Below, in pieces: positions 1,137 through 26,426 of a stretch of 64,000 bases of DNA. The stretch spans positions 1 through 64,000 of the forward strand of contig KZ538027.1 of assembly GCA_000934665.2 (NCBI GenBank), given 5' to 3'. The notes beneath the pieces are model-generated. The model saw only the letters and a list, made by a program, of their open reading frames with translations, was not told the origin of the DNA and did no database searches. Position numbers and translations under genes: made by a program. This DNA comes from Catajapyx aquilonaris (taxonomy: Eukaryota). Every line of letters begins with the position of its first letter. Position 1 is the first letter of the stretch.

Positions 1137-1941
1137 ATGGTGGGAAAAGTACTATTTCTCGCGCCGATTTACCTCGCGTTTTTCCTCACTTTCCCAAAGG
1201 TACGACACTTATTATTGTGAGGCTACAAAATATGCCTATACATAATATACTTGTTTCATGCCTTTCAATCAGGATGTCAAGTCTGGTGGCGAATGTGAGT
1301 TTGAGTCTCCGGAGCTGCTGCAATTTGTAGGACACGTGAAGGAATGTTTGGATGAATACCCTAAAAATTTACTGGTAATAAGTACATGTCAAAAAAGGTT
1401 GTTAAGAATATTTACAGTACGGTCTGTGTACCCTTCCAGTGCTGGCTGCAATGCTTCATGCAGAAGATAGAAGTGGTAAGATTACGTGGCTGGTTAGTGT
1501 CATTGCGGCAAATACTAACAATGTCATTTTCACAGGTGAGCAAGTCAGGTGTGGTAGACTTGGGCAAGATGGATGAACTGCTGGCTGCTATGCCGGATGG
1601 AAACCTGAAATCCGTTTTAACTACAGCGAAAGGAAAGTGCCTCGTAGGAAGTAAGTTATAAGCATTGTGTCCTGGCAGAATACTGTACAAAATAATCATC
1701 TAAATGTGAATATTTTCAATGTCAACAGTTGAGAAATTTGACGTCACACTTGACAAATGCGCAGGATTCAGAACGGTTGGAATTTGCATGACTGTATTGC
1801 TGCAAAAGGTACGCTGTTATATATAAAATTGGGTGAAATTATGCAACTACGATAATTGCCTGCATTTTTTCCCCCAATCAGGAGTGCTCCAATTTCGTCA
1901 CTTTCGTGAAGGAATATGCGGCACAAGTGAAATCTGCTTGA
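1137..1941 (+). CDS. OBP-like secreted 8-Cys protein, copy A1 (151 aa, intact)
   Basis: Exons 1137-1199, 1273-1374, 1440-1475, 1536-1650, 1729-1808, 1882-1941, all GT-AG with an open frame. Signal peptide MVGKVLFLAPIYLAFFLTFPK, then DVKSGGECEFESPELLQFVGHVKECLDEYPKNLLCWLQCFMQKIEV...KCLVGIEKFDVTLDKCAGFRTVGICMTVLLQKECSNF. Spacing C-X16-C-X9-C-X3-C-X41-C-X13-C-X8-C-X8-C includes the OBP core C-X3-C...C-X8-C. Confidence 0.8.
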
Positions 1942-2781
1942 GCCTTTTGAGCATAGGACACGCACAGCATGCTGCACCTGTGAAACCCACATTGCAATCA
2001 CATCGTAATAAATAATCAGGACCGCGATTCTTATCATTTTGGTAACTATTATTTTATAGTACATAAATCCCTGCATCAAATCCTCCCAGCCAGATTCTGA
2101 AGCTAGGGGGAACGAGCACATAAAAAAAAGGCGCCACGACACACATACCAAACAATTGCAAACTCAGTACACATTTTTATTTTGTGTTACAAATCAAAAC
2201 ACTAGAATTATAGGCTTATAGACGTCCACTTTGGTTTCAGCTGCTGCTTCATTCCACCTCAGTTTCTGCTTGGTTTATTAACCTCTTGTACCCAACTTAT
2301 TACATTTGTGGCTGCACTTGTGGCTACACATGGATGTCCGACTTGCAAAAGGTTTGGTTTTTGAGAAAATAAATCCGAAACGTAAACTCCATCTGGCCCA
2401 CTACCAACCGTGCTGTCTCCTCCTCCGCTCATGTCTCCTGCAAATCTTGCAAGCTACTACATTTTACGGACAATTCCATGTTCAAACCCACAGTTAACCA
2501 GAAAATATTAAGAAGCAATAAGAATGCAAATCAAATTCCCAAAACAATGTACTGTACATACTGTACTATGGCAAAGGTAGACACTCGACGAGCAATATTT
2601 TCTCACACTAAATGATTGATTGTTCTTCTGTGTTCCTTTCCTGGACTTCTGTTCCCATGTTTCATGGTCGTGACTTTTGATCTTTTGAGTGGGTTACGAG
2701 TAATTTGTTGTTGTTCCACGCATACCCGGTATACAACTCTTGAATACCATACTAGTGCATAGCAACAATGTTCCAATATTG

Positions 2782-3997
2782 ATTAAGAGGTTAGGTCTAC
2801 TTAACTGCTGGTCATTCTTTTGTAAGATGTTCTTTTCGCATTTTTTGCACACCTCTTGACCTTACATCATTAAACATTAGTGGCTTGAAAAATCCCTGTC
2901 ATTTGGCAGGTAAAATATTACATGCCAAGTTTTATAACAATCCAAAAAAATAGAGGATGGACCTTTGATTTTTTTTTTTAAATATAATCGCCAAGCACGA
3001 ACGTCCACTCAACAATCATTACCACTGACCTCTCTGTACACGCATAACCAATCCAGAAAATGACAGTAATTTGCTTTTGCTCGCTCTTATTTTTCTCTGT
3101 CCAAAACAGCGAAATGAAGTTCACGCCAGGTCAAAGGTTACATGTTATAAACCTCATTTGTCTAACGTACATCCCAAAACTAATATATTCTTGCAGTACA
3201 CAACATTGCTGTGGAGCAATATCATCGGGATATTTTTTACAAGTTTTGTTCATTATAATTTATTATAAGCCGTCAATCGAGATTTATATTTATAGGACAC
3301 GTGAAGGAATGTCTGGATGAACATCCTACAAATTTAGTGGTAAGTATGCATGCCAAAAAAGGTTGTTAAGAAATTATTAAAGTACGGTTTGTATAACCTT
3401 CCAGTGCTGGCTGCAATACTTCATGGAGAAGATAGAAGTTGGTGCCTCATTGTTATTGCCGTAAAATACTAACAATGTCATTTAACAGGTGAGCAAGTCA
3501 GGTGAGGTAAATTTGGCCAAGATGGATGAACTGCTGGCTGGTATGCCCGATGGAAACCTGAAAAACGTTTTAACTACAGCTAAAGGGATCTACAGGTAAG
3601 ATAATAAGCAATGTGTCCGGGCAGAACACTGTACAAATCATCTAAATGTGAATATTTTCAATGTCAACATCCGAGAAATTTGACATCACACTTGACAAAT
3701 GCGCAGGATTCAGAAGTGCTGGAATTTTTATCATTGTATTGTTGCAAACGGTACGCTGTTACTTGNCCCCCCCCCCCCCCCCCAATCAGGAGTGCGCCAA
3801 TTTCATCACTTTCGTGAATGAATATGCGGCCCAGGTGAAATCCTCTTGAGCCTTTTGAGCATATAGGACATGGACACGTTGCTCCTGTGAAACGCACATG
3901 CAATCATATCGTCATAAATAATAATTAGCACGTCCATTCTTACCACTTTGGTAATTATTTTATAGTACATAAATCCATGCATCAAATCCTCCCAGCC
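2782..3997 (+). repeat. Direct segmental duplication of about 438-2090 (A1 locus) with an internal deletion
   Basis: Starts attaagag(g/gt)taggtctacttaactgctggtcattc and ends catcaaatcctcccagcca in both copies. About 945-1325 of the first copy is missing at about 3280-3292. Confidence 0.9.
3293..3849 (+). pseudogene. OBP-like pseudogene A2
   Basis: Paralog of A1 lacking the signal-peptide exon and half of exon 2. The exon-3 donor is altered, the exon-4 Cys is deleted (gctaaagggatctacag), the exon-5 acceptor is mutated (caacag to caacat) and an exon-5 Cys is changed to Phe. Confidence 0.8.
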
Positions 3998-4504
3998 ACT
4001 GATTGGAAATCAAAGCTTCATTGTTGTCAACATTGAAACCAGGAATTTTTCCAATCCATTAAAAATATTCTGACAATAGAGCAATCTGTGTTTCAACAAC
4101 AATAACAAGGCCCATTGCGTAACTGATATTTTTTAATATTTAAAAAATAACGAGGCTCTTAAAATACTGCATGCACCCTACATGTATACCGTACCCACGT
4201 ATGACGTAATAAAAATAATGTGAACCCATACAAAATCAGCATGATTCACTTTGGGGCGTGATCTACTTGACACCCGAGATGTTGTCATTGTAACATTACC
4301 AATTCTCCCTATACCAGTGTTCTATATGTAAATGATCAGCTAATACTGTGAAACATGTACTGCATGTAATAGACTTTTATAGTATTTAAAAAAAAATTGC
4401 TGTATAAAAATTCAATGATCCATTGATTGGGCTAAACAAAAATTCATCATTGCACAATATTCAGGTAATTATATCCACCGAAGTGATAGTATATTATTCA
4501 CTTC

Positions 4505-5720
4505 AGATCTAAAAAAAACATTGTCACCTGATAAGTTACAACAATAAGAGGCAGCAATTTCCATCACCTTCCGCCGACGTCATCAGTGACCTACAGCGCA
4601 TAAAATGTGACGTGACATAGAGCACTTCAAAGGACTCATTCAGTGTATTGCCAGGACAAGATTACATATGTTTTCCTATACTTGCTTGTCCTACGTGCAT
4701 GATCGTCCTTAGCGATATTGCCAGACCCCAGGTCTATGCAAATCTGGACATGCAATGCGATGTAATGATATATTGTGGTCCACTGGCACTATTCAGATCT
4801 CACGTGTAGTACCAGTCTGCAAATCGCAATGAGGAAGTGTTGGGTTACGTCTGTGGCGGTGCTCTCTGTCCTCCTCTTGGTCCACTATCCGCAGGTATTG
4901 TTGCCCACAACATATGAATTATCTGATATTTCACACTAAACTTGCAGAATTCTTCGGCTGAAGAAGAAGAATGCGACTTCCAAGCTTCAATCCTGATGGA
5001 ATACATGGGTCCAATCGCACACTGTATGCAGAAGCACCCTAAAAATTTAATCGTAAGTTCACTTTGCACAAACAAATTGCAGTCAAGTACAATGCAATTA
5101 TCATTTCCAGTGTGTGCTGCAGTGCTTCTCTGAGACCGTCGGAATTGTAAGACTTGTTGTCGTTAATAACCACATGCTAAATAATATACACATGCCCTAA
5201 TTTTTAACAGATGAAGACGGATGGGACACCGAACGTTGAGAAAATTAGAGAAGTCATGAACAAGTTTCCTGAAGGAAAGCTGAAGAAAACTATGGTCAAA
5301 GCTGGGCACGAGTGTTATCAGCATAGTAAATATTTTCTTTCGTATGACAAACTTTTTTTGAGTCTTCGACTTATTTTATAAATTATAATTAATTCAACAG
5401 CCATAATCACTGATGTTGAGTCGCCTACGTGCCAAGGTTACCTCAAATTAGCCATGTGCTTCGGTAACATCATCATGAAAGTAAGTAGAAATTTCTCATT
5501 AATATATTGTTCGGACTGCTAATTATTTTATCTTCATCAAAGGCATGCCCCAACTTTGGACCATTCATGAAAGACTTCCTGGAGCAGTGGAACAACGATC
5601 ATCGCGAATAATCTTCAACAATTAATTTCCTGCTGCTTCATGAAACTTACATGTAATTGAAAATAAAACTAAACTTGCAATGTGTTGAATGCTCTTTAAC
5701 ATTCCTATGTTATTTAGGCC
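4505..5720 (+). repeat. Direct duplication of about 9670-10910 (B-type gene with promoter)
   Basis: Near-identical upstream, exon, intron and 3' UTR sequence starting at agatctaaa...attgtcacctgata. Confidence 0.9.
4829..5611 (+). CDS. OBP-like secreted 8-Cys protein, copy B1 (156 aa, intact)
   Basis: Exons 4829-4894, 4948-5052, 5111-5146, 5211-5325, 5401-5480, 5543-5611. Signal MRKCWVTSVAVLSVLLLVHYPQNSSA. Same Cys spacing as A1; C-terminal ACPNF resembles the Cys-Pro of Plus-C OBPs. AATAAA at about 5662. Confidence 0.85.
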
Positions 5721-5769
5721 TTAAAGGTAATTGTTTCCTTCAGCGAAAATTGGGAAAAAATATTAACTA

Positions 5770-5944
5770 GGTGCCCTTCGCCAAATCATCAGTTATTTCC
5801 GTGCAATTTCTGTGTCAATTGAACCATTTTTGCGGTCATATACAGAGTGTATGTTTTCTGGAGAGGGGGGAGGGGGAGGAAGGGTCGCATATTTATGGAA
5901 ACACGTTTAGGGAGTCGCAGTTGGTAAAAGGTTGGAAACCACTG
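5770..5944 (-). mobile_element. hAT-like non-autonomous element end
   Basis: Reverse strand begins CAGTGGTTTCCAACCTTTT, a typical hAT/Charlie-like terminus. It is followed on + by ccctagga, resembling an 8-bp CTAG-centred target. The other end was not identified, so the left boundary is approximate. Confidence 0.5.
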
Positions 5945-6184
5945 CCCTAGGACCTCTGCCCCTATTAATAATTGTTTTTACGTTCATTGCATGTCCTGTT
6001 GTAGCGACCTCACTATGGCAACTTAGGGTCGCTTGACCTGTAAAATTTAATTCAGAGAGATGTCATACGACTGACTCACGAATTAAGAGAGAAAGAGGTG
6101 TGCTGGTGGTACTTTTTTTATTTAATTGAACTTCAAATCATGCAAGGGATGATGACATTATATCCAAGCCGGATGGCCGATACA

Positions 6185-6580
6185 TCATTTATCATTGCGC
6201 ATGTGCTGCAAGAAATCCTTGATGAATTGCGTAAAGTTTGGGCATTCCTGAAAGCCAACAAATTGCAATTAGTGGCATCACAGCAGATGTAAATTTTACA
6301 TGAAGTAGTTTCCTCACCCTGCGAATGGTGCGATGCAGGCACAATGCAAATCTGGTAAATCCTGCACAATCAGGCTTGGTGATATCAACCGACTCGTCTG
6401 AAAGATGGTAAAACTATGTGAGACAAAGTACACGAATATTATTATGGTCCTTAGGACTTACACTTATCGAGGCAATCCTTCTTTAATGCAACAACTGCAT
6501 TCTTCAAATTACTTGGAGGTATTAAATTAACCACCTCATCATACATTGCTTTGTTTATAATCCCCTTCTCATCTATCTGC

Positions 6581-6652
<72 letters not shown>

Positions 6653-7008
6653 TGGTTCATACAAATCCGATTTTCTCTGTGAAGCACTGCATCAAGCACT
6701 GAAAAGATAATTATGAAGGTTATTCATAGTTTTTCGTAGTTGTTACTTAGATTTTATTGAAGTAATTATTGAGTTATTACCAGCATGCGATCAGGATGCG
6801 CGTTGAAGCAGACTGCAAAAGGGGCAGTGAAATGTACCAACTCAGGAGAGTTGAATTCGCAGTCAGCCTTCGCTTTCTCACCATATATTTCCTGAGAAGA
6901 AAAGGAGTGCATAAACTGCACACAACATTATTCCTAATGTCTCACCTGCGTATTCTGCAGCAACAATACGACCAAGATCAGCTGGAGACAATTAATGTTG
7001 CCCGTCAT
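6185..7008 (-). CDS. OBP-like secreted 8-Cys protein, copy C1 (155 aa, intact)
   Basis: Minus-strand exons 7008-6946, 6891-6781, 6698-6663, 6576-6462, 6397-6318, 6247-6185. Signal MTGNINCLQLILVVLLLQNTQEIYG. Motifs CEFNSPEL, CLMQCFTEKIG, DCLDK, PDCAGFTRFALC, ECPNF. Confidence 0.85.
6581..6650. repeat. (TAA)n microsatellite, about 23 units, in intron 3 of C1
   Basis: Directly visible. Confidence 0.98.
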
Positions 7009-7427
7009 TATATTGACTGCTCTGGGGGCACTATAAAGTCGAAAGCCACAACTTCTCTTTTTATGATAATTTTTTCTCTTATCCCTACATCCCTTTGACG
7101 AAATTCGTGCATCACAAAAATTGCGAAAAGGAAGTCACCTCAACAATGACCAAGGGATATGCAAATGAATTATTGCGAAAACCACGAGATGTCCTGGAGA
7201 TATGCAAATTTACCAATTATTTACATGATTGTGCAAGTGTTGGGTCAAAGACTGCGGAATATTTTGCGATTCTGGTGACATTGAAAATAATTCAGGTGGC
7301 ATTTATTCTATCAGTGTCTTAGTAAATAACATGAGAATGTTAAAGAGTATTCAATATATTGCAGGTTTTAATAAATTTTCAATTACGTGTAAGTTACATG
7401 AAGCAGCAGGAAATTAATTGTAGAAGA

Positions 7428-7643
7428 TTATTCGCAATGATCGTTGTTCCACGGCACCAGGAAGTCTTTCATGAATGATGCAAAGTTGGGGCATCCCTTT
7501 GATGAAGATAAAAAATAATTAGCAGTCAGAACAATATATTAATCAGCAATTACTACTTACTTTCATGATGATGTTACCGAAGCACATGGCTAATTTGATG
7601 TAACCTTGGCATGTAGGCGACTCAACATCAGTTGTGATTATTG
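7428..7643 (-). pseudogene. Truncated OBP-like copy B3 (exons 5-6 only)
   Basis: Minus strand encodes TDVESPTCQGYIKLAMCFGNIIMK and GCPNFASFMKDFLVPWNNDHCE*. Homology to B2 stops at about 7643, where unrelated sequence leading into a LINE fragment begins. Confidence 0.85.
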
Positions 7644-7949
7644 GCTCCGAAGCGAGCTCGGTAACGGGCAATGGGGTATAAAATTTATAAAATCAAGCTG
7701 CACTTACATTTGAAGGAAATAAGGTATCTAGGATAAGCAGATGCAATGTTATTAAAAATTACTTTGAAATATTTGGAATATCAACAGCTAGTTTCTGATA
7801 AATTGGTAGAAGAGAACTAGACAGTTATGTCCTTAGAGGAGGCTTGGTATTGTTTCAAGTCCTCCTTAGTGAGTAGTGGTGTTGATTTTTGTGGTATGGC
7901 TAAGGTGGGTTGTAAGAAGGGGGATCGTTGGTAGAACAAGGAGATGGCT

Positions 7950-8295
7950 GAATATTCAGAGTGGGTTATTTATGTCGGGTAAGAGTTGTGTAGATCAGAT
8001 ATTCTGTATGAGATTCGTGATAGAGAAGTATTTAGCTGTAAACAATAAGGTTTATGTTGCTTTTGTAGACTTACAGAAAGCACATATATGGCGGCACAGT
8101 GAGTAGGGATGGTTTGTGGGAGGTTCTGAGTCTGGAGTGAAGGGCCACCTGCTGGAGGCTGTAAAGTCATTGTATGAAGAGAGTAGAGCTTGTGTTAGAA
8201 CTAGTGGGGGTTTCTCTGACTGGTTTAACATTAGTGTTGGGGTTAAGCAGGGTTGTGTCACGTCTCCCTGGTTATTTAACTTGTACTTAGATCTA
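7950..8295 (+). mobile_element. Degenerate non-LTR retrotransposon reverse-transcriptase fragment (RTE-like)
   Basis: Peptides QSG.FMSGKSCVDQIFCMRFVIEKY...YVAFVDLQKA and GVKGHLLEAVKSLYEESRACVR...SDWFNISVGVKQGCVTSPWLFNLYLD are non-LTR RT motifs. The frame is broken by a stop codon. Confidence 0.85.
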
Positions 8296-8423
8296 GTCCA
8301 TGATGTTGCCAGCTTTACGGCCGTACGAGAATTTCTCAGCTGAGAAAAGGGTGGTGAAACGCACGGGACCTTGAGTATCCTAATGTCACTGTCACCCCAC
8401 TGTCACTGTCGTCACTATAAGTA

Positions 8424-9668
8424 TACCTTAACCACTGCGGCGTTGTCAGCAAAAAAAGAGAGACACCATCAATGCCAGTGTCTGCATTGACGGATAATGC
8501 GCACTGTGCTCATACTCAGCTGTGCTTATATCCTTCCCAATTAAGCAGGGTTGGTTATATTTGAGCCATTTCCCACAATGACCAGGAAGATGGGTCTGAC
8601 CAGTGTGGGATCAGATAATTATGCAAATCCAACATGTAGTGCTCATCCTATTGTGACGATGGGCGACACTATACATGTCAGTTTGTAACGAGCAGAACTC
8701 GTGTGTGTAGCGGTGTGTCATATTCATAAAATTGGGTGGAAATGTTGGCCTATCTTATTAAGTAGCATCCAAGCTTTCCATGCACTTTCCCATCGAGAAA
8801 CAAGTCCAGAAAGGGAATGGATATTCACGGCGACTGAATGGGCATGGGAAAGGATCATGTGACGGGGTCGGAGGACTAATGAAGCACCACACGACACTAC
8901 ACAATCTGACCCATGTTGCAGTAGATATCCCATCCATTCTGCAGAAGATTAAGTCAGGGTATTAAGTGCTTCTCTAGAAAACCTGCACATCATACTTGCA
9001 ACCCAAGATCGTGTGGAAAAGCGTGTGGCAAAAGGGATTCAAAGTTGCCATCATTGGTTCGTGGACAATGGATATACAATAATGACACGTATATGTCTCC
9101 TAACAAGAGGTCCAAGTAAGTGCAACTTAAATACTGTCAAGTAACTTCTTCAATACTACAATAAAATTCACAACAAAAGTTAGACTATATCAGTTCACGC
9201 ATATTAATATGCGAACAACTGTAACCAAGTCTATGATGTAGCATATGGAATGTTGCAACTGAAAAAAATATACATAAATTTCACAATGGTTACAGTTCAT
9301 TATGACTTTAGAACTGCAAGGATGTTGAAAGACACTAAATGAAAGCAAAAAATATCACTTTTCATAAATTTGAATCTCATTTATCAAGAATCAGGTTTTG
9401 ATATTATTTGATCACAGAACCAGTCTTTCCTTTATGAAATATATAAAAAAATATTGCATATTAAAAATAGTGTTTTCAAGATATTAATTTTTGAAATGTG
9501 CATATCTGAAACAAAAATCCCCACTCTGAAATAAATTAGTATCTCACTGAATACAAATATATATCATAATAGAACTCATGCTACTTCGTTATCCAAAAAA
9601 TAACGATTAAATATTTAAAATGGCTTCTTACAGAAAATATACCGGTATTCTGAAACGGAACCACCCTC
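8424..9668 (+). mobile_element. Degenerate DNA transposon, tentatively Sola2-like
   Basis: The peptide GHGKGSCDGVGGLMK (about 8840-8885) resembles a transposase HGK..CDG.GG motif that I associate with Sola2 from memory. The region ends ...ccaccctc exactly where homology to the B1 promoter resumes. A second copy lies at the window start. Confidence 0.5.
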
Positions 9669-10008
9669 TAGATCTAAATAAAATTGTCACCTGATACAAC
9701 AATAAGAGACAGCAATTTCTATCACCAGCCTCCGACGCGACGTCATCAGTGACCTACAGTGCATAAAATGTGCCGTGACAGCACAGCACTTCAAAGGACT
9801 CATTCAGAGTATTGCCAGGACAAGATTACATACCGGTATGTTTTCCTATCATTTGCATACTTGCTAGTCCCACGTGCATGATCGTCCTTAGCGATTTCTA
9901 GACACCAGGTCTATGCAAATCTGGACATGCAATGCGGTGTAATAATTATATATTCTGGTCCGCTGGCACTATTCAGATCTCAAATGTAGTACCAGTCTGC
10001 AAATCGCA

Positions 10009-10797
10009 ATGAGCAAGTGTTGGGTTACGTATGTGGCGCTGCTGTCGGTCCTCCTCTTGGTCCACTCTCAGGAGGTCTTGCTGTCCACAACATATGAATT
10101 ATCGGATTTTTCATACTAATCTTGCAGAATTCTTCGGCTGAAGAGGAAGAATGCAACTTCCAAGCTTCAGCCCTGATGGAATACATGGGTCCAATCGCAC
10201 ACTGTATGCAGAAGCACCCTAAAAATTTATTCGTAAGTTCACTTTGCACAAACAAATTGCAGTCAAGTAGTCTACAATGCACTTATCTTTTCCAGTGTAT
10301 GCTGCAGTGCTTCTCTGAGACCATCGGAATTGTAAGACATGTTGTCGTTAATAACCACATGCAAAATAATATACACATGCTCTTATTTTTAACAGATGCA
10401 GGCAGATGGGACACCTAATGTTGAGAAAATTAGAGAAGTCATGAACAAGTTTCCTGAAGGAGAGATGAAGAAAACTATGGTCAAAGCTGGGAATGAGTGT
10501 TATGAGCATAGTAAATATTTTTTTTTCGTATGGCAAACTTTTTTTGAGTCTTCGACTGAATTTATAAATTATAATTAATTCAACAGCCATAATCACTGAT
10601 GTTGAGTCGCCTACATGCCAAGGTTACGTCAAAGTAGCTATGTGCTTTGGTAACATTATCCTGACAGTAAGTAGTAATTGCTGATTAATATATTGTTCGG
10701 ACTGCTAATTATTTTATCTTCATCAAAGGCATGCCCCAACTTTGGACCATTCATGAAAGACTTCCTGGAGCAGTGGAACAACGATCATCGCGAATAA
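10009..10797 (+). CDS. OBP-like secreted 8-Cys protein, copy B2 (156 aa, intact)
   Basis: Exons 10009-10074, 10128-10232, 10296-10331, 10396-10510, 10587-10666, 10729-10797. Close paralog of B1 with an identical last exon. The intron-1 donor (gtcttg) is weak. Confidence 0.85.
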
Positions 10798-11227
10798 TCT
10801 TCAACAATTAATTTCCTCCTGCTTCATGTAACTTACACGCAATTGAAAATAAAAATATATCTGCAATTTATTGAATGCTCTTTAACATTCTCATGTTATT
10901 TACTAAGACCTTGACAGAATAAATGCAACGTGAATCATTTTCAATGTCACCAGAATCACAAAAGATTCCGCAGTCTTTGACCCAACACGTGCACAATCAT
11001 GTAAATAATAATTATTGGCCTGGTAAATTTGCATATCTCCAGGACATCTCGTGGTTTTCACAACAATTCATTTGCATATCCCTTGGTCATTGTTGAGGTG
11101 ACTTCCTTTTCGCAATTTTTGTGATGCACGAGTTTCGTCAAAGGGATGTAGGGATAAGAGAAAAAATTATCATAAAAAGAGAAGTTGTGGCGTTCGACTT
11201 TTTAGTGTCCCCAGAGCAGTCAATATA

Positions 11228-11570
11228 ATGATGGGCAACAATTGTCTCCAGCTGCTCTTGGTCGTATTGTTGCTGCAGAATCCGCAGGTGAGATATTAGG
11301 AATAATGTTGCGTGCAGTTTATGCACTCTTTTTCTTCTCAGGAAATATACGGTCAGGATGAGAAGATCTGCGAATTCGGCTCTCCTGAATTGATACATTT
11401 CTCTGCCCCTGTTGCATTCTGCTTCAACGAGCATCCTATAAACTTGCTGGTAATAACTCAATAGTTAGCCTACTTCAATCAACTCTAAGTAACAACTATG
11501 AATAACCTTCGTATCTTTTCAGTGCTGGCTGCGTTGCTTCACGGAGAAAATCGGAATAGTATATGAACCA

Positions 11571-11650
<80 letters not shown>

Positions 11651-12061
11651 TTCTTCTTCTTCTTATGCAGATAGATGAGAAGGGGACTGTGCACAAAGAC
11701 AAGGCGGATGATCTGATTAGTCAAGTACCTGCAGGTCATTTGCAGAATGCATTGGTTGCATTGAAGAAGGAGTGTCTCGATGAGCGTAAGTCCTGAGTAC
11801 CATACAGTATATTAGTGTACGTTGCTTGTCTCACACAGTTTTACCATCTTTCAGATGAGTCGATTGATGTATCCAAGCCTGATTGTTCAGGATTGACAAA
11901 ATTAGCATTGTGCATGAATCGCACCATGCGCACGGTGAGGAAACTACTTCATGTAATATTTTCATAAGCAGTTATGCCACTAATTACAATTTGCTTACTT
12001 TCAGGAATGTGCAAATTTTATTACATACATCAAGGATTTCATGGAGCACATGCGAAGCTAA
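11228..12061 (+). CDS. OBP-like secreted 8-Cys protein, copy C2 (151 aa, intact)
   Basis: Exons 11228-11287, 11342-11449, 11523-11558, 11671-11785, 11855-11934, 12005-12061. Sequence MMGNNCLQLLLVVLLLQNPQEIYG-QDEKICEFGSPEL...CWLRCFTEKIGIIDEKG...ECLDEHESIDVSKPDCSGLTKLALCMNRTMRTECANF. Confidence 0.85.
11572..11663. repeat. (ATT)n about 26 units plus short (TTC)n microsatellite in intron 3 of C2
   Basis: Directly visible; paralogous to 6581-6650. Confidence 0.98.
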
Positions 12062-12470: not shown

Positions 12471-13565
12471 ATGTACACCTCCTGCCTTGTCATTTTTCTT
12501 GTAGGTAAGTACAGTACATATTCAGGAGAGTAAGCACCTGACGAAATACATATCACATCGGACATACTGCAGTACAACTATACAAGTGACTTGACAACAA
12601 CAACAACAACATCACGACATTTCCATATGAGGGGTAGTCAGCGATGAAGGGAGACGCAAGCCAACCCAACATATGAACTAATAAAACTCATGAGAATAAA
12701 CCTAAAAACAACCTGTCCCACCCCCTACCCCTGCCCACCCCAGACAAATTGAAGATATTGGTAAATGTTTAACTTTCCAGTAATTCCTGGTCATCCGAGT
12801 GTTCAAAGCGAATCCATCGTCCCAACACAAGAGAATCCATGCATTTGCAGCTTAGATGGCTGGCAGAGGCAGCTGGCCAAAGAGCTCTTGGACAAGGACC
12901 TCTCCCGCTTGTCTCCAGAGCAGAGAACAAAAGCCCAGCTCAAACTGGGTCAAAATGGAGTCATACTGGTTCCAGGTCACATTCCAGATGTTAGAGCATC
13001 CACACACTTTCCTGGTCTCATGCTGGGTGAGGCAGGACATCCTTTGTCCTGTATGTGCCAAGCTGGTAAGCAAATGGTAATTTCATAGAAAAATAAATGC
13101 ACACGACTTTATCAGACAGATTTCCTTATTTATGGTCAAGGTTCACGTGTGATCTATGAAGTGATAGTGACGGGTGCCAAGTGGCACAAGTCCCTTCAGG
13201 ATCCCGAATCATTACTCTTTGAGCAGCTGTCCATGTATGTGAGCCACCACCTGGACACCATCTTCTCCTTGTCCCCTGCTCCTCAAACGCCCCTCCAGCC
13301 ATCCGCCTATGTCCGATCAATTGTTCTCAGCTACTCACGCTACCGGCAATCAGAAGTGTCAGCTACCATCGAGACACAGCTCAGCATTCGCATGCTCAAA
13401 GCAGGCGATAAAGTCAGGTCTGCCTTCGTCAAGTCCATCTTCAAGGGGATCGAGCTGGAACCGGAGCCCAAGAAGGACGATCAACCCCTGCCCTTTCTTC
13501 CTCTTACGCTGATCCTGGAGAAACCTTTCCGTGATATCACTGGCAGCTGCAATCGGTGCCATTGA
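12471..13565 (+). CDS. Secreted SEA-like domain protein, paralog 1 (247 aa as written; possibly frameshifted near the 3' end)
   Basis: Exons 12471-12504 (MYTSCLVIFLV), 12781-13065 and 13141-13565 joined by phase-1 introns. Segment KWHKSLQDPESLLFEQLSMYVSHHLDTIF resembles the first helix region of SEA domains. Strongly similar to the 14278 paralog. Confidence 0.7.
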
Positions 13566-14277
13566 GATCTGCATCAAAGCATCCAACGGCTAAGAACAAC
13601 TCTGCTACTACAACAGTACTCGGGAGGTCAATCGGACGTAAGGGCAAGACATTCAGAAGAAACTGCTGAAGCGATGCATGGTCATTGTCCCTCCACATGT
13701 GACATACCTTCTATTATTACCAGTATCACGCAACAATATTATTGTTGATGTCATTTCTACTACTACTACTGCTTCAATAAAAAGTTCAATTTCTGCAACA
13801 TGTAATGTAAACTCATTGCTTTTGCCATTCATGTCCAAGTCCAGCAGGACCTGTTTGACGTCATACACGACACCTTAGGAGTGACGTCTTAAGAAATCTA
13901 GGAGCAAATCTGCCATTGATTTACTCCAAGTCATGCAATGCTAAGGAGTTTCCATAGTGAGAATAACATAGGGGGTTGCTACAACAGGTGGCTGCCTTGG
14001 ACATGCAAAAAGAAAGGAAGGTAACGTAACGACGGAAAGGAAAATAAGTACACAAGAGGACCAGTTAAGGTGAATTATGACTTGACAGTTCTGATTAATG
14101 GGATGGGAGTATCCAGCACTGACGAAAGAACTTGTATCCAAAAAGTTGGCCATTTCTGTCACTTGTACATGGCCAACATGTGAGTATGCACATTTTGCAT
14201 TCAATGCACCTTCATAATACATTCTCAGGAGGAGCAAAATTTTCAGTGCCTACTATCCGACCACCAGTGCTTGCATC

Positions 14278-15577
14278 ATGTACACCTTCTGCCTCATCGT
14301 ATTTCTGATCATAGGTAAGTAATTACTGCAATCTTATGTAACTAGTAGTCATTTTCACGCTGGCTCCCCACAACCAGTAATACCTGGCCATCCGAGGGTA
14401 CAAGGCGAATCCATCCCGGCGCAAGAGAACCCATGCATGTGCACCTTAGATGGCCGACAGAGACAGCTTGCCCTCAAGCTTTTGGACAAAGAACTATTCC
14501 GCCTGACTCGCGAGCAGAGGACTAAGGCCAAGCTCAAACTGGGACAAAACGGAGCCATCCTGATTCCGGGTGACGTTCCGGCAGTTAAAGCAGCCACGTA
14601 CTTTCCTGGGCTCATGCACAGTGATGCCGGAAAACTGCTGCTGTGCACATGCCAAGCTGGTAAGCAACGTCAGGAAAAATTGTGGTACGGACTTATTTTT
14701 CTTTTTGTTAGGTTCCCGTGTGATCTACGAAGTAACAGTGACGGGTGCCAAGTGGCACGAGTCGCTCCTGGATCCCGAGTCATTATTCTTCGAGCAGCTG
14801 TCCACGTACGTGAGCCACCACCTGGACAGCATCTTCTCCCTGTCCCCTGCACCGCAAACACCGCTCCAGCCATCCGCCTATGTCCGATCCATCGTCCTCA
14901 GCTATTCACCCTACCCTCCGAAAGGAGTGTCGGCTACCATCGAGACACAGCTCAGCATTCACATGCCCGATGCAGTCCTCAAAGTCAGGTCGGCCTTCAT
15001 TAAGTCCATCTTCAAGGGGATCAACCTAAAACCAGCGACTAACAATGACAACATGAAGCATCGTAAACCCCTACGCTTTCTTCCGCTTATACTGGTCCTG
15101 GAGAAGCCTTTCCGCGATGTGTCTGAAAGAAGGGTAAAAAGGGCCGCCACGAAGAAGGACAACACCGAAGAGGTTCTGGAGCAGGTTGGAGGAGCATGGA
15201 GAGGTACGTAGCCAAACACGTCGTGAACCCAGTAAATAATTACACAATTTGAGGTTCCGCAACAGTGCCACATTTTTCTAACACAAATTTCTCCCCCATC
15301 TGGACCAATTCCAGACACATCTTACAAAGGTGTAAGGTTTGGAGAAACGCCAGACAATCTCTATTACGTTACCATACCCGCATTTGTAGGTAGGCACAAT
15401 CCTAGTCATGCACGTCCGCACCAACAGCACTACAATAACATGCCAGATACTAACCCGCTAAATTTTTCAGGGCTGATGATACTGACGTGCCTCATTTTCT
15501 TCATGACAAAAATCAGAAGCCGGTTTTGCAACTGTTGCGGGGGACAAAAAATCATTGAAGGGAAAGAACAGCTGTGA
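14278..15577 (+). CDS. Type-I membrane SEA-like domain protein, paralog 2, isoform a (330 aa)
   Basis: Exons 14278-14314, 14378-14659, 14712-15203, 15315-15389, 15471-15577, all phase 1. Signal peptide, CMC...CTC domain, SEA-like domain, RRVKR, TM LYYVTIPAFVGLMILTCLIFFM and tail TKIRSRFCNCCGGQKIIEGKEQL*. AATAAA at about 15718. Confidence 0.8.
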
Positions 15578-16652: not shown

Positions 16653-17561
16653 ATGAATTTCTTTGGGAGCAAACCGACTGCAAAAGGTGAATATATTTGG
16701 CGTAAAATCTCTCATAGAACGTGGTGGAATCAGACTGTCTAAATAATAAACCGCACTAGTGACTAGTGCACCGACAAGTATTACTGCACGGTTTAATTGT
16801 ATGTGAAATTGTGAATAATTGCAGAGCAAATGAGAGAGAACGACCGGATGCTGCGGAAGGCAGGACGGGACATTGAGAGGGATCGGAGGCAACTGGAGAT
16901 GGAGGAGAAGAAGCTGGTAAGCGCAATTGTCGGTAAAAAAAAGGGTACGTAACGATATGACAAGTTACATTTCATTGATAGGAATTGGAGATAAAGCAGA
17001 TGGCAAAAGCGGGGAACAAGGCTGCGTGCGGGGTACTTGCGAAACAGCTGGTGCAGCTTCGTAAGCAGAAGTCTCGCACGCATACGGCAACCGGTAAGGT
17101 TAAGTCGGTGGGTTTCCAGGCGAAGTCGATGCAGGCTAATGTGAAGTTGGCCGATGCTATGAAGACGACCTCAAAGACTATGGGAGATATGAACAAGATG
17201 ATGAAGCCGCAGGACATTGCGAATACCATGAAGGAGTTCCAGGCTGCTTCCGCTAAGATGGAAATGAGTGATGAGATGATGAACGATGCGCTGGAGGATA
17301 TACTGGACGAGTCGGGAGATGAGGAGGAGTCTGATTTCCTGGTGCAGAAGGTGCTGGATGAGATTGGCATCGAGATGTCCGGAAAGGTGATCTTAATCAC
17401 TGCGAAAATTTTGTTTGGACAGAAACTTAACAATGTACTGCTTACAGGTTCGTGGTGCTCCGATGGCTCAAGGAGAAATCGGCGAGTCGTCCGCATCCAA
17501 GCAAAGGACGGACGAGATCGAGGCACAGTTGGCCCGACTTCGCAATCTCGACGCACAATAA
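16653..17561 (+). CDS. CHMP2B: Charged multivesicular body protein 2B (ESCRT-III, Snf7 family), 214 aa
   Basis: Exons 16653-16686, 16825-16916, 16982-17386, 17448-17561. Sequence MNFFGSKPTAKEQMREND...LELEIKQMAKAGNKAACGVLAKQLVQLRKQKSR...DEEESDFLVQKVLDEIGIEMSGK, with a C-terminal MIM1-like DEIEAQLARLR. Confidence 0.95.
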
Positions 17562-17591
17562 TTCTGAAGCCATTTTGCTAAACTGGCCCCT

Positions 17592-21190: not shown

Positions 21191-24100
21191 TTAGGTCATG
21201 TATCGCATTATGGCACGTAATGCGTACAAAAGTTCGGCTTGCATCCGAGCTTCAAGCACCATTAGGTTGACGTGAACCTGGAAATAAGATATCAGAATTA
21301 TTTGCCTGTCTCAAAACGGTGAGTGGAGTAACGGTCGATAGGCCATACCTTTTCCGAGTGTCGGAACTCCCTCATAACACAATCGTAATCAGCCTTTCCA
21401 AGCCTCTCTGGGAAGCAGCAAACAGTCTTGATAAACGCCTTCAGAGACCTCTCCAACAGTTGATTCACCTCCCCGTAATCGTAGTCGTCATGCCTGCAAC
21501 ATACGAACGGCGGTAATTTGCTTGCCTATCAACAGCCACCAAATGAACCGTACCTGATTCCATACATGCACTGGATGTAATTCCAGATGGCCCTCCTGAA
21601 TCTAGAGGTGTCGACATCTTTCCAGGTGCCCATGGTATAGTATGTAAGATTATAGGCCACCTTGAACTTCTCATCAAGGAGGTTCCCCACATCGTTGTAC
21701 AGCCGGTTGACCAGAGAGTATCCGTGGTCGTCCCAGCTGTAGTCTTGCACCCTGAAGGTGGGGATCTCCGACACCTCGCCGCGCTTGGCAAAGTCCTGGT
21801 AGGAGAAGGACGGATCTTCAATGAACTGGCTGATGTCCGCGCTCAGTCCCAGGAGGACACGCTGGTTGCTCAGGAGCTCCATGCTTTGGCTTTCGACATG
21901 CTGGAACCTAGACAAAGAGGGGAATACATGGCGTGATTAGCTAGGGCAAACCATTAAACTAGCTGCTGAATGGGAACAGTGACTCATTGCTTTTGTTATT
22001 TTAGCTTGTTTGATAACATTGATTTGAATGTACAATGTGCTGAAACTGTTTAGCACACAATATGAATGTGTAAATGGGCTCTGACTCATGCTCGTAACAG
22101 TTGCATGCGGACAGATTCACTGCCAACGATGCATCGCTGTATTACAATGTCCAAGCGCGGTATAAACTTGTTCACGCAAACAGCCACGGTTTATCTCACT
22201 TGAGTGCTGCAATCCAGAAATATAGCATTTTTTTTTCTCTCAGATCTAATGGTTATACGCAAGGGGCAAAGGTTACAAACCACATGTGGCAGACCCCCCC
22301 CTGCTTGACCTATATGCTGTTCCTTTGTAAACTCCAATTTTGGTCAACAACACTGTCGGAGAATTTCAATGTTAAACAAAGCAAAAAATAATAATCTAAC
22401 CTCTTGTTCCTCTCTTCCATGGTGAACTCCTCTTGCTTCTCCGAGAGAGTCTTCATCCGCTTCATCAGTGTGTCTACTCCGACCTCCTGATCCCGCACAG
22501 GTTGTCCGTCCAGGCGAGCTGGAGAGAGGTTCCTGGAGTCTGAAAAACACACAAGTCGCACTTAAAGCAAATCCGCATAATTGCAACAATTCTGCGACAA
22601 CTGTGCTCTAGCCATTGTTGTGCTAACTATGATACATCATGAGAAATATGCCTTTCGATGCATACCTCACAATTCAAGTACGAAGAAAACATGTGGTTAT
22701 GCCCTATGCGGATATGGCATGCCAGACACAAATGATGAAAAACAGCCAACGACTTGCAGCCTTAGCACCATAAATCCGCATAATTTTAAACTGGCATGTT
22801 GTAACCCCTATGCTTGAATTATCTAACTCTACTTGAACCTTGGGTCAAATGGCTATTGCATAAGCGACGGACATAACAAGTAATCAAATGAGACTCGGGC
22901 AACAATGTTCCATTTAAAGCCAACTCACTCGGGTCCGGTTGTTGCTGCGGTGGAGATCCGTTGGTCCCCTCTTTGGCATTATTGTCGTAGGTGTGGTTGC
23001 TCTCCTGGTCCAGCTCGTCATTGATGCCACAGCCAAACACAAAGCTAGACAAAGCGTGGAACTGGGTCATGATCACAATTGCCTGCACCAACTCCCCAAG
23101 CGTCCAGCTGTCTTTACTCTTTGTCAGTTTCTGGAAGGGAAAAGAAAAATGTCACATTACACGTTAAGGACAACACTAGGCAAGCCCCGGTTATTTTGTA
23201 ACAAAAGCAAACTTACTGCATTTACATGAAAAAAGGCAGCATACAAGGAAAAATCTCAAGCATTTTCAACACATTTTATGCCGGCACGATCGTAATAAAA
23301 CTTGCTGGCCTAGGTTGAACGAGACCCACCTCTATGTGCGCCTTGGTGAGTAGCCATGGCCTGTGACACAGGATCTTGTTGATTTCGTAGAGGTCCCTCA
23401 GCTTCTTCGGGATCTGCGGAAGCCCACTTTCCAACCACCGCTTGTCGCCTCCTTGACTCTCGAACTCCTGGCCATGCAAGTTGATGAGGTAGCTGCACTG
23501 ATGCCTTCCAGCAGCCTGATAGGTAATCAGAAAGGAAAATTAAGTCCCCCATTACAATCAACTAATGGCACAATGTGGGCAGTGCAACTACCCTTTGTTC
23601 ATGCAACCATTAGCCACCGTGACTCACACATGTTTGCAACACATTTTATATGGACGAATAGCAATAAATTTATTGGTCGGCATAATACGTGACAGACTCT
23701 CCCATTTCCTGAAACAAGGGGGCATCCGTAATGACCATCTTTGTTCATTTGCGACCCTTTACCTGGAGAGAGAAAGGAGCTCCCTAGGGAAAAAATTGAG
23801 GCCTTGGTGCAACTTGATGCAAGGTAGGTGTGGTGTTAAAAGACCACTTTGAAAGAAGAAAAAAAAAAACAGGGTGGCCACAAAAACCACCAAGATTTTA
23901 ATCATGTGAGGAGTATATCAGCTTTCTCAATGGCGAGATGTCACATGCTCAATGCAAGGTGAGCAGGTTATTGTACCGAGTAGTTTATAAGCTGGCCTGT
24001 CACGCTCCATGGCTTTTTTTGGTGGCCGATTGTTCGGGAAGCAGTGGACAGTGGCAGTCGTAAAAATTGAGTTGAAAGAGTGTCAACAGGACGTCGGCCA

Positions 24101-26426
24101 ATTTCTAATGCGGTTCTCGTGTGGGGGTCAGATCGGCAAACAGATCAAGACGCTCCAATTGACTTTCACTTTGGGGATTTAGCACCTGAACCTCTCCGCA
24201 CATCTTGACAAACGCTCCTTGTTTGAACGTGCACGGCACTAATCCTTAGTTCACGGTAAGATGTAACGGATTACGTTATAAGCAAGTTGCTGGGCTATAC
24301 ACAACTGAACTTTTTCAGACAATGCACTAACCTGCGACATAACCAGGGAGCATATACTACATACATGTAGTATACATGCTCCCTGACATAACACTGAAAG
24401 TAACAAGAGTAAATATTAACCTTTACAAATATGGCACTGAGAAAAATGCATAATTCATGTGATTGTTCTTGCAACAAGCAGTGCTCTTCAATGATTATAA
24501 TATTCAGTAACTAGAGCCCCGGAAAGTCAATTAGCATGAACCCAAGGCTGTACAGTACCGAGCACACATTGCAGGTGCAAAAAAAAAGGGTTTCCCTCAT
24601 AAATTTCTATGCGAACCTGACAAGCATGATTACATGCAGCAATTTGGAGCACCTAAATCAATTTGGCCGATGCCCAACAGGTTATATCCAATAAGTTATT
24701 TTGACTCTAATGCACTTGTAAATCTGGCCGCTCCCCCCCCCCCAAAAAAAACTTGTGCAGTTAAAAAATCCATGTCACGTGCCATTAGCAGGTCACAATC
24801 CTGAAAACTTCCAACATAAAGCCAGAGGGGTGAAAGGTGGTGAAAAGACAAAATAAAACAACCTGGCCATGCGAGAAAGTGAACGTATGAGCCGGGACAT
24901 CCTCATGGTTGAGCTTTGTCCTCTTTCAATGATATGCGCTCCACAGCCCGGTGTTTTGCCCCCATCCAAAACAGGATTTTGAGAGAGAAAAAAAAATTAT
25001 ATATGGCAGGAGCAAGGAGGGGGAAACATATGAGGTGCCACTTATGACCACAATTTTCATGTGTTTATGTGGTATTTCATGTTGTGACCTTTTTTCCAGG
25101 AAATTATGACCATCTGATTCATGTCTAGGTCAATTCTAGAAATTAATTTATTGGGACATGTTGCAACGCAAGAACGCCAAGTTGGTCATAAGTTACGCAC
25201 CGGTCCTGTTGTGTATGAAAGCAAACTGAAAGTTACCGCATTTGCACTCAAGTAAATTTTAAATGAGCACAAGACTGTAAATATGAGGATGTGACACACT
25301 CTCCAGGTAAAGTTACTGTTGAATACATAAACATTAGAAAATTGCAGGACTGCATTTAAAATGTAGGACGTCAAGCGGAGCAAATATTGCACACACATTC
25401 ATATAGAATTGCAGCTTGTCAGCGTTACTTTCTGAAACATTGCATGTCATTCGGTAACTTTAAAAACCAGTAATTTTCCACAAGTTTCCATCCGAATCGT
25501 ATATGACAGAAAGACACGCCCACACATTAAAGGACATATTTTTTTTGTCAACAATTTTTGACATCATTAATATGAATGGGCTTTGTTTCTCGATGCAGCT
25601 GAGTTATTACAGTGTTTTTCTCTTACCAGGAAAAGCAGCTGAGAATATTAAATTGGCTTCCATGCAGCCAACTTGCATTGCAAGTTGCAACTGTGAGTAC
25701 ACGATTGCATAAAGGGCTGTGTATTTACAGATGCAAGAGGACTGCGAATTAATCAGTACAGCAAGTAAGAAGACGTAAGAGATAGCATTGCAGTATTCAT
25801 TATTATTCTTTAATCATCTGTTTTTATTCCAACTCTTTGGACTGACATACTCTGTGTAACAAGTAAACAAAAAAATTATTACCAATTAAATTACAACTGC
25901 CTTCCAATGCTATAGTAACACACCTCACACAGTACTCAGCCACAATTTATGTCAACTCTGCCCAGGAAATGCATAATTGAATGTGTGCAGCGCAAACGTA
26001 ACTTTTGAATGACTCTTTAACCGAGCTGTAAATAGTTGAAATTGCTCTGTTAATACCGCTTGCAGTGATAATGCAGGTCATTTGCTAACCTAGCTTCAGC
26101 ACAAAAAAATTGCGGAAACAATAGTTGCTCCGTTGACATATTTGCATTGTAGTCAATGCTAAGCAATTTGCATTGGAGCCCCACTGGCCTGCACTGGAAT
26201 TCTACCGGGGCAACCTGAAAAAAAAAAAAAGAGGAGACATGTGAATGCGACTGACCATGATGGCGATGTAGTGCCTGTAGTGGAAAGGCAATGGGCCGTC
26301 ACCCCGTAGGAGGAACTGCTGGGTCCGCATGAAACACTCCAAGTACTGCGGGTGAAAGCCCATCACCTGGGTCAGGTGATCCAAGCGATTGTTCTGTAGA
26401 AATGCGTCGATGAACAGGACGTGAGT
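21191..26426 (-). CDS. SESN: Sestrin common core (7 exons)
   Basis: PA26/sestrin domain exons as listed in the long isoform. Confidence 0.97.

Follow-up and report, generated by a model that had tools for sequence, protein, structure and literature searches.

Classic insect OBPs have a six-helix fold in which the disulfides C1-C3, C2-C5 and C4-C6 are formed. Their cysteine motifs, which were used here for classification, are given in PMC5958050 and PMC7414794 (for these and the other papers cited by identifier, our statements follow excerpts of the source). Plus-C OBPs are characterized by the motif C4-X23-25-C4a-X9-C5-X8-C6-P-X9-C6a, and chemosensory proteins (CSP) by four cysteines in the arrangement C1-X6-C2-X18-C3-X2-C4 (PMC7414794), whereas the locust plus-C type-B OBPs are described as carrying two additional cysteines, one preceding C1 and the other following C6 (PMC6062766). 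In the excerpts of PMC5850775 and PMC4145409, OBPs are regarded as a hexapod innovation. Only distant OBP-like proteins are known from chelicerates and myriapods; those of chelicerates have six cysteines at non-insect positions, paired C1-C6, C2-C3 and C4-C5 (PMC8269058).

In the window, i.e. the whole stretch of 64,000 nucleotides that was analyzed, a cluster of ~12 kb consists of five intact genes for predicted small secreted proteins and two decayed copies. Judging from the sequence, the cluster is most likely a strongly diverged lineage within the arthropod OBP family, with one extra disulfide. We consider it probable that the products of the five genes are small, secreted, all-helical carriers of the PBP_GOBP superfamily with that extra disulfide, in a cluster shaped by birth and death.

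Gene structure and cysteine scaffold

Gene models rebuilt from the window show five intact six-exon genes, A1, B1, C1, B2 and C2, in the locus 1137-12061. Gene A1 (1137-1941, plus strand; exons 1137-1199, 1273-1374, 1440-1475, 1536-1650, 1729-1808 and 1882-1941; all splice sites GT-AG) encodes 151 aa, of which exon 1 contributes a hydrophobic leader and the mature part comprises 130 aa with eight cysteines; a poly(A) signal is located at 2007. Gene B1 (4829-5611, plus strand; exons 4829-4894, 4948-5052, 5111-5146, 5211-5325, 5401-5480 and 5543-5611) encodes 156 aa, with a poly(A) signal at 5662. Arranged tail to tail with B1 is gene C1 (6185-7008, minus strand; exons 7008-6946, 6891-6781, 6698-6663, 6576-6462, 6397-6318 and, including the stop codon, 6247-6185), which encodes 155 aa and carries an (ATA)n array in intron 3 at 6581-6651. 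Gene B2 (10009-10797, plus strand; exons 10009-10074, 10128-10232, 10296-10331, 10396-10510, 10587-10666 and 10729-10797) encodes 156 aa, and its intron 2 is in frame and stop-free. Gene C2 (11228-12061, plus strand; exons 11228-11287, 11342-11449, 11523-11558, 11671-11785, 11855-11934 and 12005-12061) encodes 151 aa and has an (ATT)n array in intron 3 at 11572-11649.

All 25 introns are of the GT...AG type, with lengths of 53-112 nt; the intron phases 0,0,0,1,0 are common to the five genes, exons 3, 4 and 5 are 36, 115 and 80 nt long in each of them, and the products are 151-156 aa long. None of the five genes takes the form of a single ORF. These results reproduce what the preliminary description had claimed, namely, five intact genes with shared intron phases and internal exon sizes, none present as a full ORF. 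When the remainder of the window was scanned with the family HMM, no further members were detected beyond 12058, and an exon-3-like pattern at 30727-30762, considered as an extra member, was dropped because it found no HMM support.

After the exon-1 peptide, each of the five proteins contains exactly eight cysteines with the spacing 16/9/3/41/13/8/8, so the eight-cysteine spacing claimed earlier is indeed exact; four of the five products have one additional cysteine within the hydrophobic leader. Types A, B and C are only 26-36% identical to one another (within types, 87% for B1 vs. B2 and 62% for C1 vs. C2) yet have the same exon sizes, phases and cysteine spacing, which indicates that this conservation is not due to chance. 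The leader encoded by exon 1 consists of 20-22 hydrophobic aa (Kyte-Doolittle maxima of 2.4-3.3), and the mature chain of 130-134 aa has a mass of 14.3-15.4 kDa and an acidic pI of 5.0-6.5; the size, the pI, the leader and the poly(A) signals are consistent with a secreted protein.

The products resemble classic insect OBPs (PF01395; pentatomid OBP17, mosquito OBP1 3K1E, 2ERB) as acidic chains of 14-15 kDa with predicted secretion, encoded by clustered, duplicated genes, in their profile similarity over exons 3-5, and in the hallmark C2-X3-C3 and C5-X8-C6, the spacings 3 and 8 being present in all five proteins. They differ from classic OBPs in having eight rather than six cysteines, a C1-C2 linker of 9 residues or else an extra cysteine within that linker, an extended tail past C6 in which the eighth cysteine lies, and a best identity of about 28%. 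The C3-C4 spacing of 41 is inside the ranges printed in the excerpts, whereas the C4-C5 spacing of 13 is above both (X7-12 and X8-10). Two assignments of the classic C1, both already offered in the preliminary description, suggest themselves from the sequence: the second cysteine, located at mature position 25-28, is favored by the profile alignment and by its position in the mature chain, and the first is favored by the X26 spacing to C2. With the second cysteine as C1, the C1-C2 segment spans just 9 residues, below the classic ranges of X15-39 (PMC5958050) and X22-32 (PMC7414794).

If the second cysteine is C1, the layout is like that of the locust plus-C type-B proteins LmigOBP6 and SgreOBP9, as compared by their excerpted description only, whereas with the first as C1 (X26 to C2) the layouts disagree; furthermore, the locust genes are described as spanning 10-80 kb, compared to 0.8 kb for the cluster genes. 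The Plus-C OBPs of Diptera and Hemiptera likewise have more than six cysteines, and a proline directly follows the last cysteine in three of the five cluster proteins (A1 has serine there and C2 alanine), but the cluster spacings are 13, 8 and 8, and no cysteine lies past the proline. Full Plus-C membership was accordingly rejected, given spacings of 13 and 8 vs. X23-25 and X9 and the lack of C6a; moreover, when the cysteines are aligned to C2-C6, the residue after C6 is not proline, the proline after the last cysteine belonging to the alternative reading. Chemosensory proteins were ruled out because the cluster spacing contains no CSP pattern. The chelicerate and myriapod OBP-like proteins (Varroa, Tetranychus, ticks, Dysdera, Strigamia) are, in the excerpts, likewise small, secreted, helical and distantly similar to insect OBPs, occur outside winged insects, and have a C1-C6 disulfide that links both ends; by the printed description, the chelicerate proteins are set apart by their cysteine positions and pairing, whereas the cluster keeps the insect-type spacing.

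For the cluster products, we propose a scheme in which fold, disulfide pairing, secretion, ligand carriage and tissue are all predicted features. Each product would comprise a leader peptide and a mature acidic chain of 14-15 kDa, in which the core six classic cysteines would form the disulfides C1-C3, C2-C5 and C4-C6 around a hydrophobic ligand pocket. The extra cysteine near the N-terminus and the one 8 residues past C6 would most likely form a fourth disulfide, linking the tail at the C-terminus with the N-terminal part. With such a scaffold, nature would provide an experiment on how the predicted shape of the binding pocket responds to an additional disulfide and to a C1-C2 segment of reduced length.

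Coding divergence of the duplicate pairs

Exons 2-6 of C1 and C2 are 78.8% identical (312/396), compared to 90.6% (232/256) for introns 1, 2, 4 and 5 (Fisher p = 5.8e-5), whereas exon 1 (57 of 60 positions identical) and the 5' flank (96.2%) are conserved. The pN of this pair is 0.19, vs. 0.094 for introns (p = 9e-4), and dN/dS is 0.94. The greater divergence of the exons encoding the mature protein compared to the introns points to accelerated coding evolution in these exons. With exons diverging at twice the intron rate, C1 and C2 would make a compact case in which to study adaptive divergence after duplication, and fast divergence of mature-protein exons, at least in the C pair, is part of the scheme outlined above.

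A conserved leader combined with a fast-changing mature part is a pattern known from venom and reproductive proteins. Because the C pair resembles this pattern, the products could have an OBP fold but a non-olfactory role, as glandular, seminal, salivary or venom-type secreted proteins with a binding surface under diversifying selection. We regard this as a possibility of limited weight. The B1/B2 pair has no exon excess (93.8% identity in exons vs. 93.6% in introns; dN/dS 0.47), the pS of the C pair is as high as its pN, so that mutational or gene-conversion effects may contribute, and chemosensory OBPs are, according to the excerpt of PMC5850775, likewise subject to birth and death.

Profile similarity to PF01395 proteins

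A profile built from exons 2-4 (A5; 106 positions) retrieved four matches below E = 1e-3 from a library of 1,835,955,588 proteins, with borderline values of 6.7e-4 to 9.7e-4. Three of the four carry PF01395, at 46.6-127.8 bits (one pentatomid OBP17 and two firefly tandem-OBP predictions), and the fourth is an unrelated repeat protein. The OBP17 group in turn matches the solved mosquito OBP1 structures (3K1E, E = 1.5e-5). An HMM built from the mature parts of the five spliced products gave 34.9-36.9 bits on the four OBP17-group proteins, compared to 10.9 bits for the best of 3000 shuffled decoys, and in this alignment cysteines 3-7 of the family fall on the classic C2-C6. Comparison of the family with the OBP17 group by hhalign yielded a probability of 96.2% over 90 columns (P = 2.3e-9; the OBPs in the hhalign and HMM comparisons had been selected with the family's own profile, and the P-values of these comparisons are therefore not independent), whereas the controls reached 0.1% (CHMP2B), 1.2% (reversed OBP) and at most 6.1% (30 column-shuffled alignments). 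A second hhalign run, of A5 against the alignment A6, gave 91.7% and was likewise counted for PF01395 homology. Conversely, when an HMM built on eight insect OBP domains was used, the five cluster proteins ranked at the top, with 19.7-28.0 bits; 3628 ORFs from the window scored below them, as did 3000 shuffles (maximum 11.5). The family thus shows profile-level homology to proven PF01395 proteins, as picked by its own profile, and has the six cysteines with C2-X3-C3 and C5-X8-C6, aligned to C2-C6 of OBP17. The OBP likeness proposed in the preliminary description therefore holds at the profile level, in the library matches, the hhalign results and the hallmark spacing.

It appears quite unlikely that the cluster instead represents an unrelated family of cysteine-rich helical secreted proteins converging on an OBP-like spacing, as do the spider candidate carrier proteins. 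In line with convergence, the library E-values are about 1e-3, and the PF01395 model (cut-off 22 bits) matched none of the 15 unspliced pieces, of which 13 came from exons and two were in-frame read-throughs with lengths of 68 and 70 aa; the C-terminal third also gives no sequence signal of its own, since with an HMM of exons 5-6 alone no OBP scored above decoys, so that the match at C5/C6 rests on cysteine spacing. In one gene tree, moreover, the host branches outside the sampled winged insects. Against convergence, three of the four best matches in the library of 1.84 billion proteins come from a single small family, the hhalign probability is far above that of any control, the likeness extends over non-cysteine residues of exons 3-4, and five cysteines are in register with C2-C6. 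The sole Pfam match among the fragments, Pox_T4_C (E = 0.078), was attributed to chance. Searches of the PDB with the B2 read-through and an exon-4 profile found no OBP, and ribosomal eL38 (E = 0.023), from the PDB fragment searches, was dismissed as noise.

The A5 search of the 1.84-billion-protein library detected no closer relative than these OBPs. A homologue search with the B2 read-through yielded three candidates, none of which scored; 183 patterns matched in a metagenome scan with a single-protein query, no relative among them; and a protein-atlas search with the A1 read-through gave no usable match. In the protein atlas, a sestrin exon matched only bacterial clusters, at 0.91. The absence of a closer relative fits the lineage-specific family that had been proposed earlier, but the suggested novelty does not extend to the eight-cysteine scaffold, which is not new in itself, eight-cysteine types such as those of locusts being already in print.

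With the insect cysteine hallmarks kept in a genome without a close annotated relative, the favored OBP assignment would make the cluster a useful data point on the timing and mode of OBP origin. A more far-reaching reading, to which we give a low probability, is that this is an insect-type OBP family in an arthropod lineage outside winged insects, possibly outside Hexapoda, with a C1-C2 segment so drastically reduced that helix 2 would be absent, and a disulfide stapling the chain end to end. If the host is indeed not a hexapod, true OBPs would have originated earlier than the 'hexapods only' view holds, and the family would form a bridge between insect OBPs and the chelicerate OBP-like proteins, in which C1-C6 also joins the ends; if the host is an ordinary insect, the family would be one more divergent OBP subfamily.

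Decayed copies and duplication anatomy

A2 (about 3286-3863, plus strand) is a decayed copy of A1 that covers the 3' part of exon 2 through exon 6 and is 82-92% identical to A1. The alignment shows that exon 1 and the 5' half of exon 2 are missing, a cysteine of the CxxxC motif is replaced by tyrosine, the exon-3 donor is deleted, a 7-nt deletion takes out the exon-4 cysteine, the exon-5 cysteine is replaced by phenylalanine, and the exon-5 acceptor CAG is changed to CAT; an N together with a poly-C run is found at 3766. Three of the seven spanned cysteine positions, one donor and one acceptor are thus lost at about 10-18% DNA divergence, which gives a picture of neutral decay at the cluster locus. 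The second decayed copy, a B-type fragment with exons 5 and 6 only (7440-7644, minus strand), was detected in a six-frame HMM scan and covers family model positions 86-132. Neither A2 nor the B fragment was on the earlier gene list. Although these two adjoining copies are clearly decayed, it is very improbable that the five genes themselves are unexpressed silent relics or annotation mirages, because, with an amino-acid divergence of 13-74%, they still keep open frames, 25 of 25 canonical splice sites, eight of eight cysteines and poly(A) signals.

The region 7323-7632 matches 5409-5716 and 10595-10715 as inverted repeats with 90-95% identity, and the segment spanning the B2 tail and C2 duplicates, in inverted orientation, the one spanning the B fragment and C1 (repeat pairs I1-I4, I7 and I10). 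The cluster has probably expanded through both tandem and inverted duplications, and the two decayed copies reflect birth-and-death turnover. The two halves of the cluster are separated by a reverse-transcriptase-like remnant (7873-8402, plus strand), seen as ORFs whose match to RVT_1 is weak (E = 9.8e-4) and falls short of the Pfam cut-off; it is not a family member. Rfam and tRNA scans of the window returned nothing. The CHMP2B neighboring the cluster is at most 66% identical to any protein among the matches listed.

Gene structure and history of the cluster

We reconstructed five intact genes from the window sequence between positions 1137 and 12061, in eukaryotic DNA with a G+C content of approximately 40%: A1 (1137-1941, + strand), B1 (4829-5611, +), C1 (6185-7008, −), B2 (10009-10797, +) and C2 (11228-12061, +). 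All five genes have six exons, intron phases 0,0,0,1,0 and exons 3, 4 and 5 of invariant size (36, 115 and 80 nt, respectively); all 25 introns are GT...AG and span 53-112 nt, and a poly(A) signal lies within about 70 nt 3' of each stop codon. The products are 151-156 amino acids long, with a hydrophobic leader of 20-22 amino acids as the sole content of exon 1, followed by a chain of 130-134 amino acids (14.3-15.4 kDa, pI 5.0-6.5) that contains exactly eight cysteines with spacing 16, 9, 3, 41, 13, 8 and 8. The preliminary description had reported five such genes, and its gene models, cysteine spacing, phases and exon sizes were borne out in every detail. Types A, B and C share 26-36% pairwise identity, compared to 87% for B1/B2 and 62% for C1/C2. 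The cluster is real, intact and recently duplicating.

A family HMM run over all 3,628 open frames of the window confined the family exons to 1279-12058 and identified two remnants besides the five genes. A2, a decayed copy of A1 (about 3286-3863) in which exon 1 and the 5' half of exon 2 are missing, has lost three cysteines, one splice donor and one splice acceptor; it contains a single N at 3766 followed by a poly-C run, probably an assembly join. The second remnant (7440-7644, −) consists of B-type exons 5-6 only. In the repeat analysis, the segment that runs from the tail of B2 as far as C2 (10595-12284) proved to be an inverted copy of that from the B-type fragment to C1 (7632-5969). The two inverted halves of the cluster are separated by a reverse-transcriptase-like remnant (7873-8402), which adjoins an inverted pair of repeat copies that are 94-95% alike (129-344 and 8491-8702); the remnant and the repeats together probably represent transposon debris lying between the halves. 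C1 and C2 share a trinucleotide microsatellite (ATT/ATA, 24-26 copies) in intron 3, at 6581-6651 and 11572-11649, respectively; it is therefore older than the C1/C2 duplication. Because A1 lies only 1.1 kb from the window edge, the cluster may extend further left.

Similarity to odorant-binding proteins and the cysteine pattern

Single unspliced family exons had no match in Pfam, and two fragment queries against PDB returned noise only. Two introns are stop-free and in frame (B2 intron 2 and A1 intron 3), and these read-throughs served as scaffolds for a MAFFT alignment of exons 2-4 (A5), in which all three exons were placed correctly. When the A5 profile was compared to 1.84 billion representative proteins, four matches were obtained, none better than the borderline E-values of 6.7 × 10−4 to 9.7 × 10−4. 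Three of the four contain PF01395, namely, OBP17 of a pentatomid bug and two firefly gene models that fuse tandem odorant-binding proteins (OBPs); the remaining match, a repeat protein, is unrelated. On the four proteins of the OBP17 group, scores of 34.9-36.9 bits were obtained with an HMM built from the spliced mature proteins of all five genes, compared to 10.9 for the best of 3,000 shuffled decoys. In hhalign, the family aligned with this group over 90 columns with a probability of 96.2% (P = 2.3 × 10−9), against 0.1% for CHMP2B, 1.2% for the reversed alignment and at most 6.1% for 30 column-shuffled alignments; a separate comparison of A5 with A6 gave 91.7%. Conversely, with an HMM of eight insect OBP domains, the family proteins took the five top ranks (19.7-28.0 bits), above all window ORFs and 3,000 shuffles (maximum 11.5). 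The OBPs in these comparisons had been chosen with the profile of the family itself. Exons 5-6 alone gave no sequence signal with the HMM. The OBP17 group connects onward to solved mosquito OBP1 structures.

Family cysteines 3-7 align to C2, C3, C4, C5 and C6 of the classic six-cysteine insect OBPs, and the eighth lies 8 residues past C6, inside a tail of 25-30 residues. For C1, the sequence would allow two readings. The profile alignment pairs it with the second cysteine, residue 25-28 of the mature chain, a position similar to that of C1 in OBP17; this reading requires a 17-residue deletion before C2 and leaves a C1-C2 linker of 9 residues. If so, the first and eighth cysteines, one ahead of C1 and the other behind C6, would match the layout by which locust plus-C type-B OBPs are described (PMC6062766). 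Alternatively, the first cysteine, exactly 26 residues before C2, would be C1 with classic spacing, and the C1-C2 segment would then contain an extra cysteine. Judged by the motif as given in PMC7414794, the family does not have the full Plus-C pattern.

OBPs are described as confined to hexapods (PMC5850775, PMC4145409); distant OBP-like proteins are reported from chelicerates and myriapods (PMC5381604), with other cysteine positions and different pairing (PMC8269058). OBP classes with more than six cysteines are well known (PMC12495806, PMC5913285, PMC5623057). The cluster is best read as a very divergent eight-cysteine branch of the OBP superfamily, which makes it a variant of something known and no new kind of protein. 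How much the finding matters depends mainly on host identity, the fold and the disulfide map.

Divergence of C1 and C2

Exons 2-6 of C1 and C2 are 78.8% identical (312/396), whereas introns 1, 2, 4 and 5 are 90.6% identical (232/256; Fisher p = 5.8 × 10−5); intron 3 was excluded because it is mostly microsatellite. The leader exon matches at 57 of 60 positions, and identity in the 5' flank is 96.2%. At non-synonymous sites, divergence (0.19) is double the intron value (p = 9 × 10−4), with dN/dS of 0.94; both genes retain all eight cysteines and an intact reading frame, with no splice site lost. For B1/B2, there is no exon excess (exons 93.8%, introns 93.6%, dN/dS 0.47). These observations suggest accelerated, and probably adaptive, change in the mature C proteins after a recent inverted duplication. 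Mutational or gene-conversion effects may also underlie the exon divergence, given that synonymous sites are elevated equally.

Neighbouring genes and host placement

The cluster neighbours sestrin (PA26) exons (21532-26666, −) and, at 16982-17578 (+), a CHMP2B (Snf7) exon that is at least 133 codons long. Among the 120 matches listed for the CHMP2B exon, identity does not exceed 66%, and ticks, flies, beetles, cockroaches, Priapulus and amphioxus come top with similar identity; thus, the host is without a close annotated relative. In a tree of the window sequence and 26 named rows of the 120 (the other 94 were unnamed or redundant), the window falls outside a clade of 15 winged-insect rows (96/96) and outside three malacostracans, on a long branch (0.54); with a tree of one short gene, a fast-evolving insect would also be compatible with this placement.

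Adjoining the cluster, the long open frames at 13089-13565 and 14564-15211 (both +) have an extended similar stretch in common. None of three frames searched (12765-13085, 13089-13562 and 14564-15208) had a Pfam match. The frames directly upstream of the two long ones are also alike, and the region 12765-15211 (+) has the appearance of an unknown gene duplicated in tandem.
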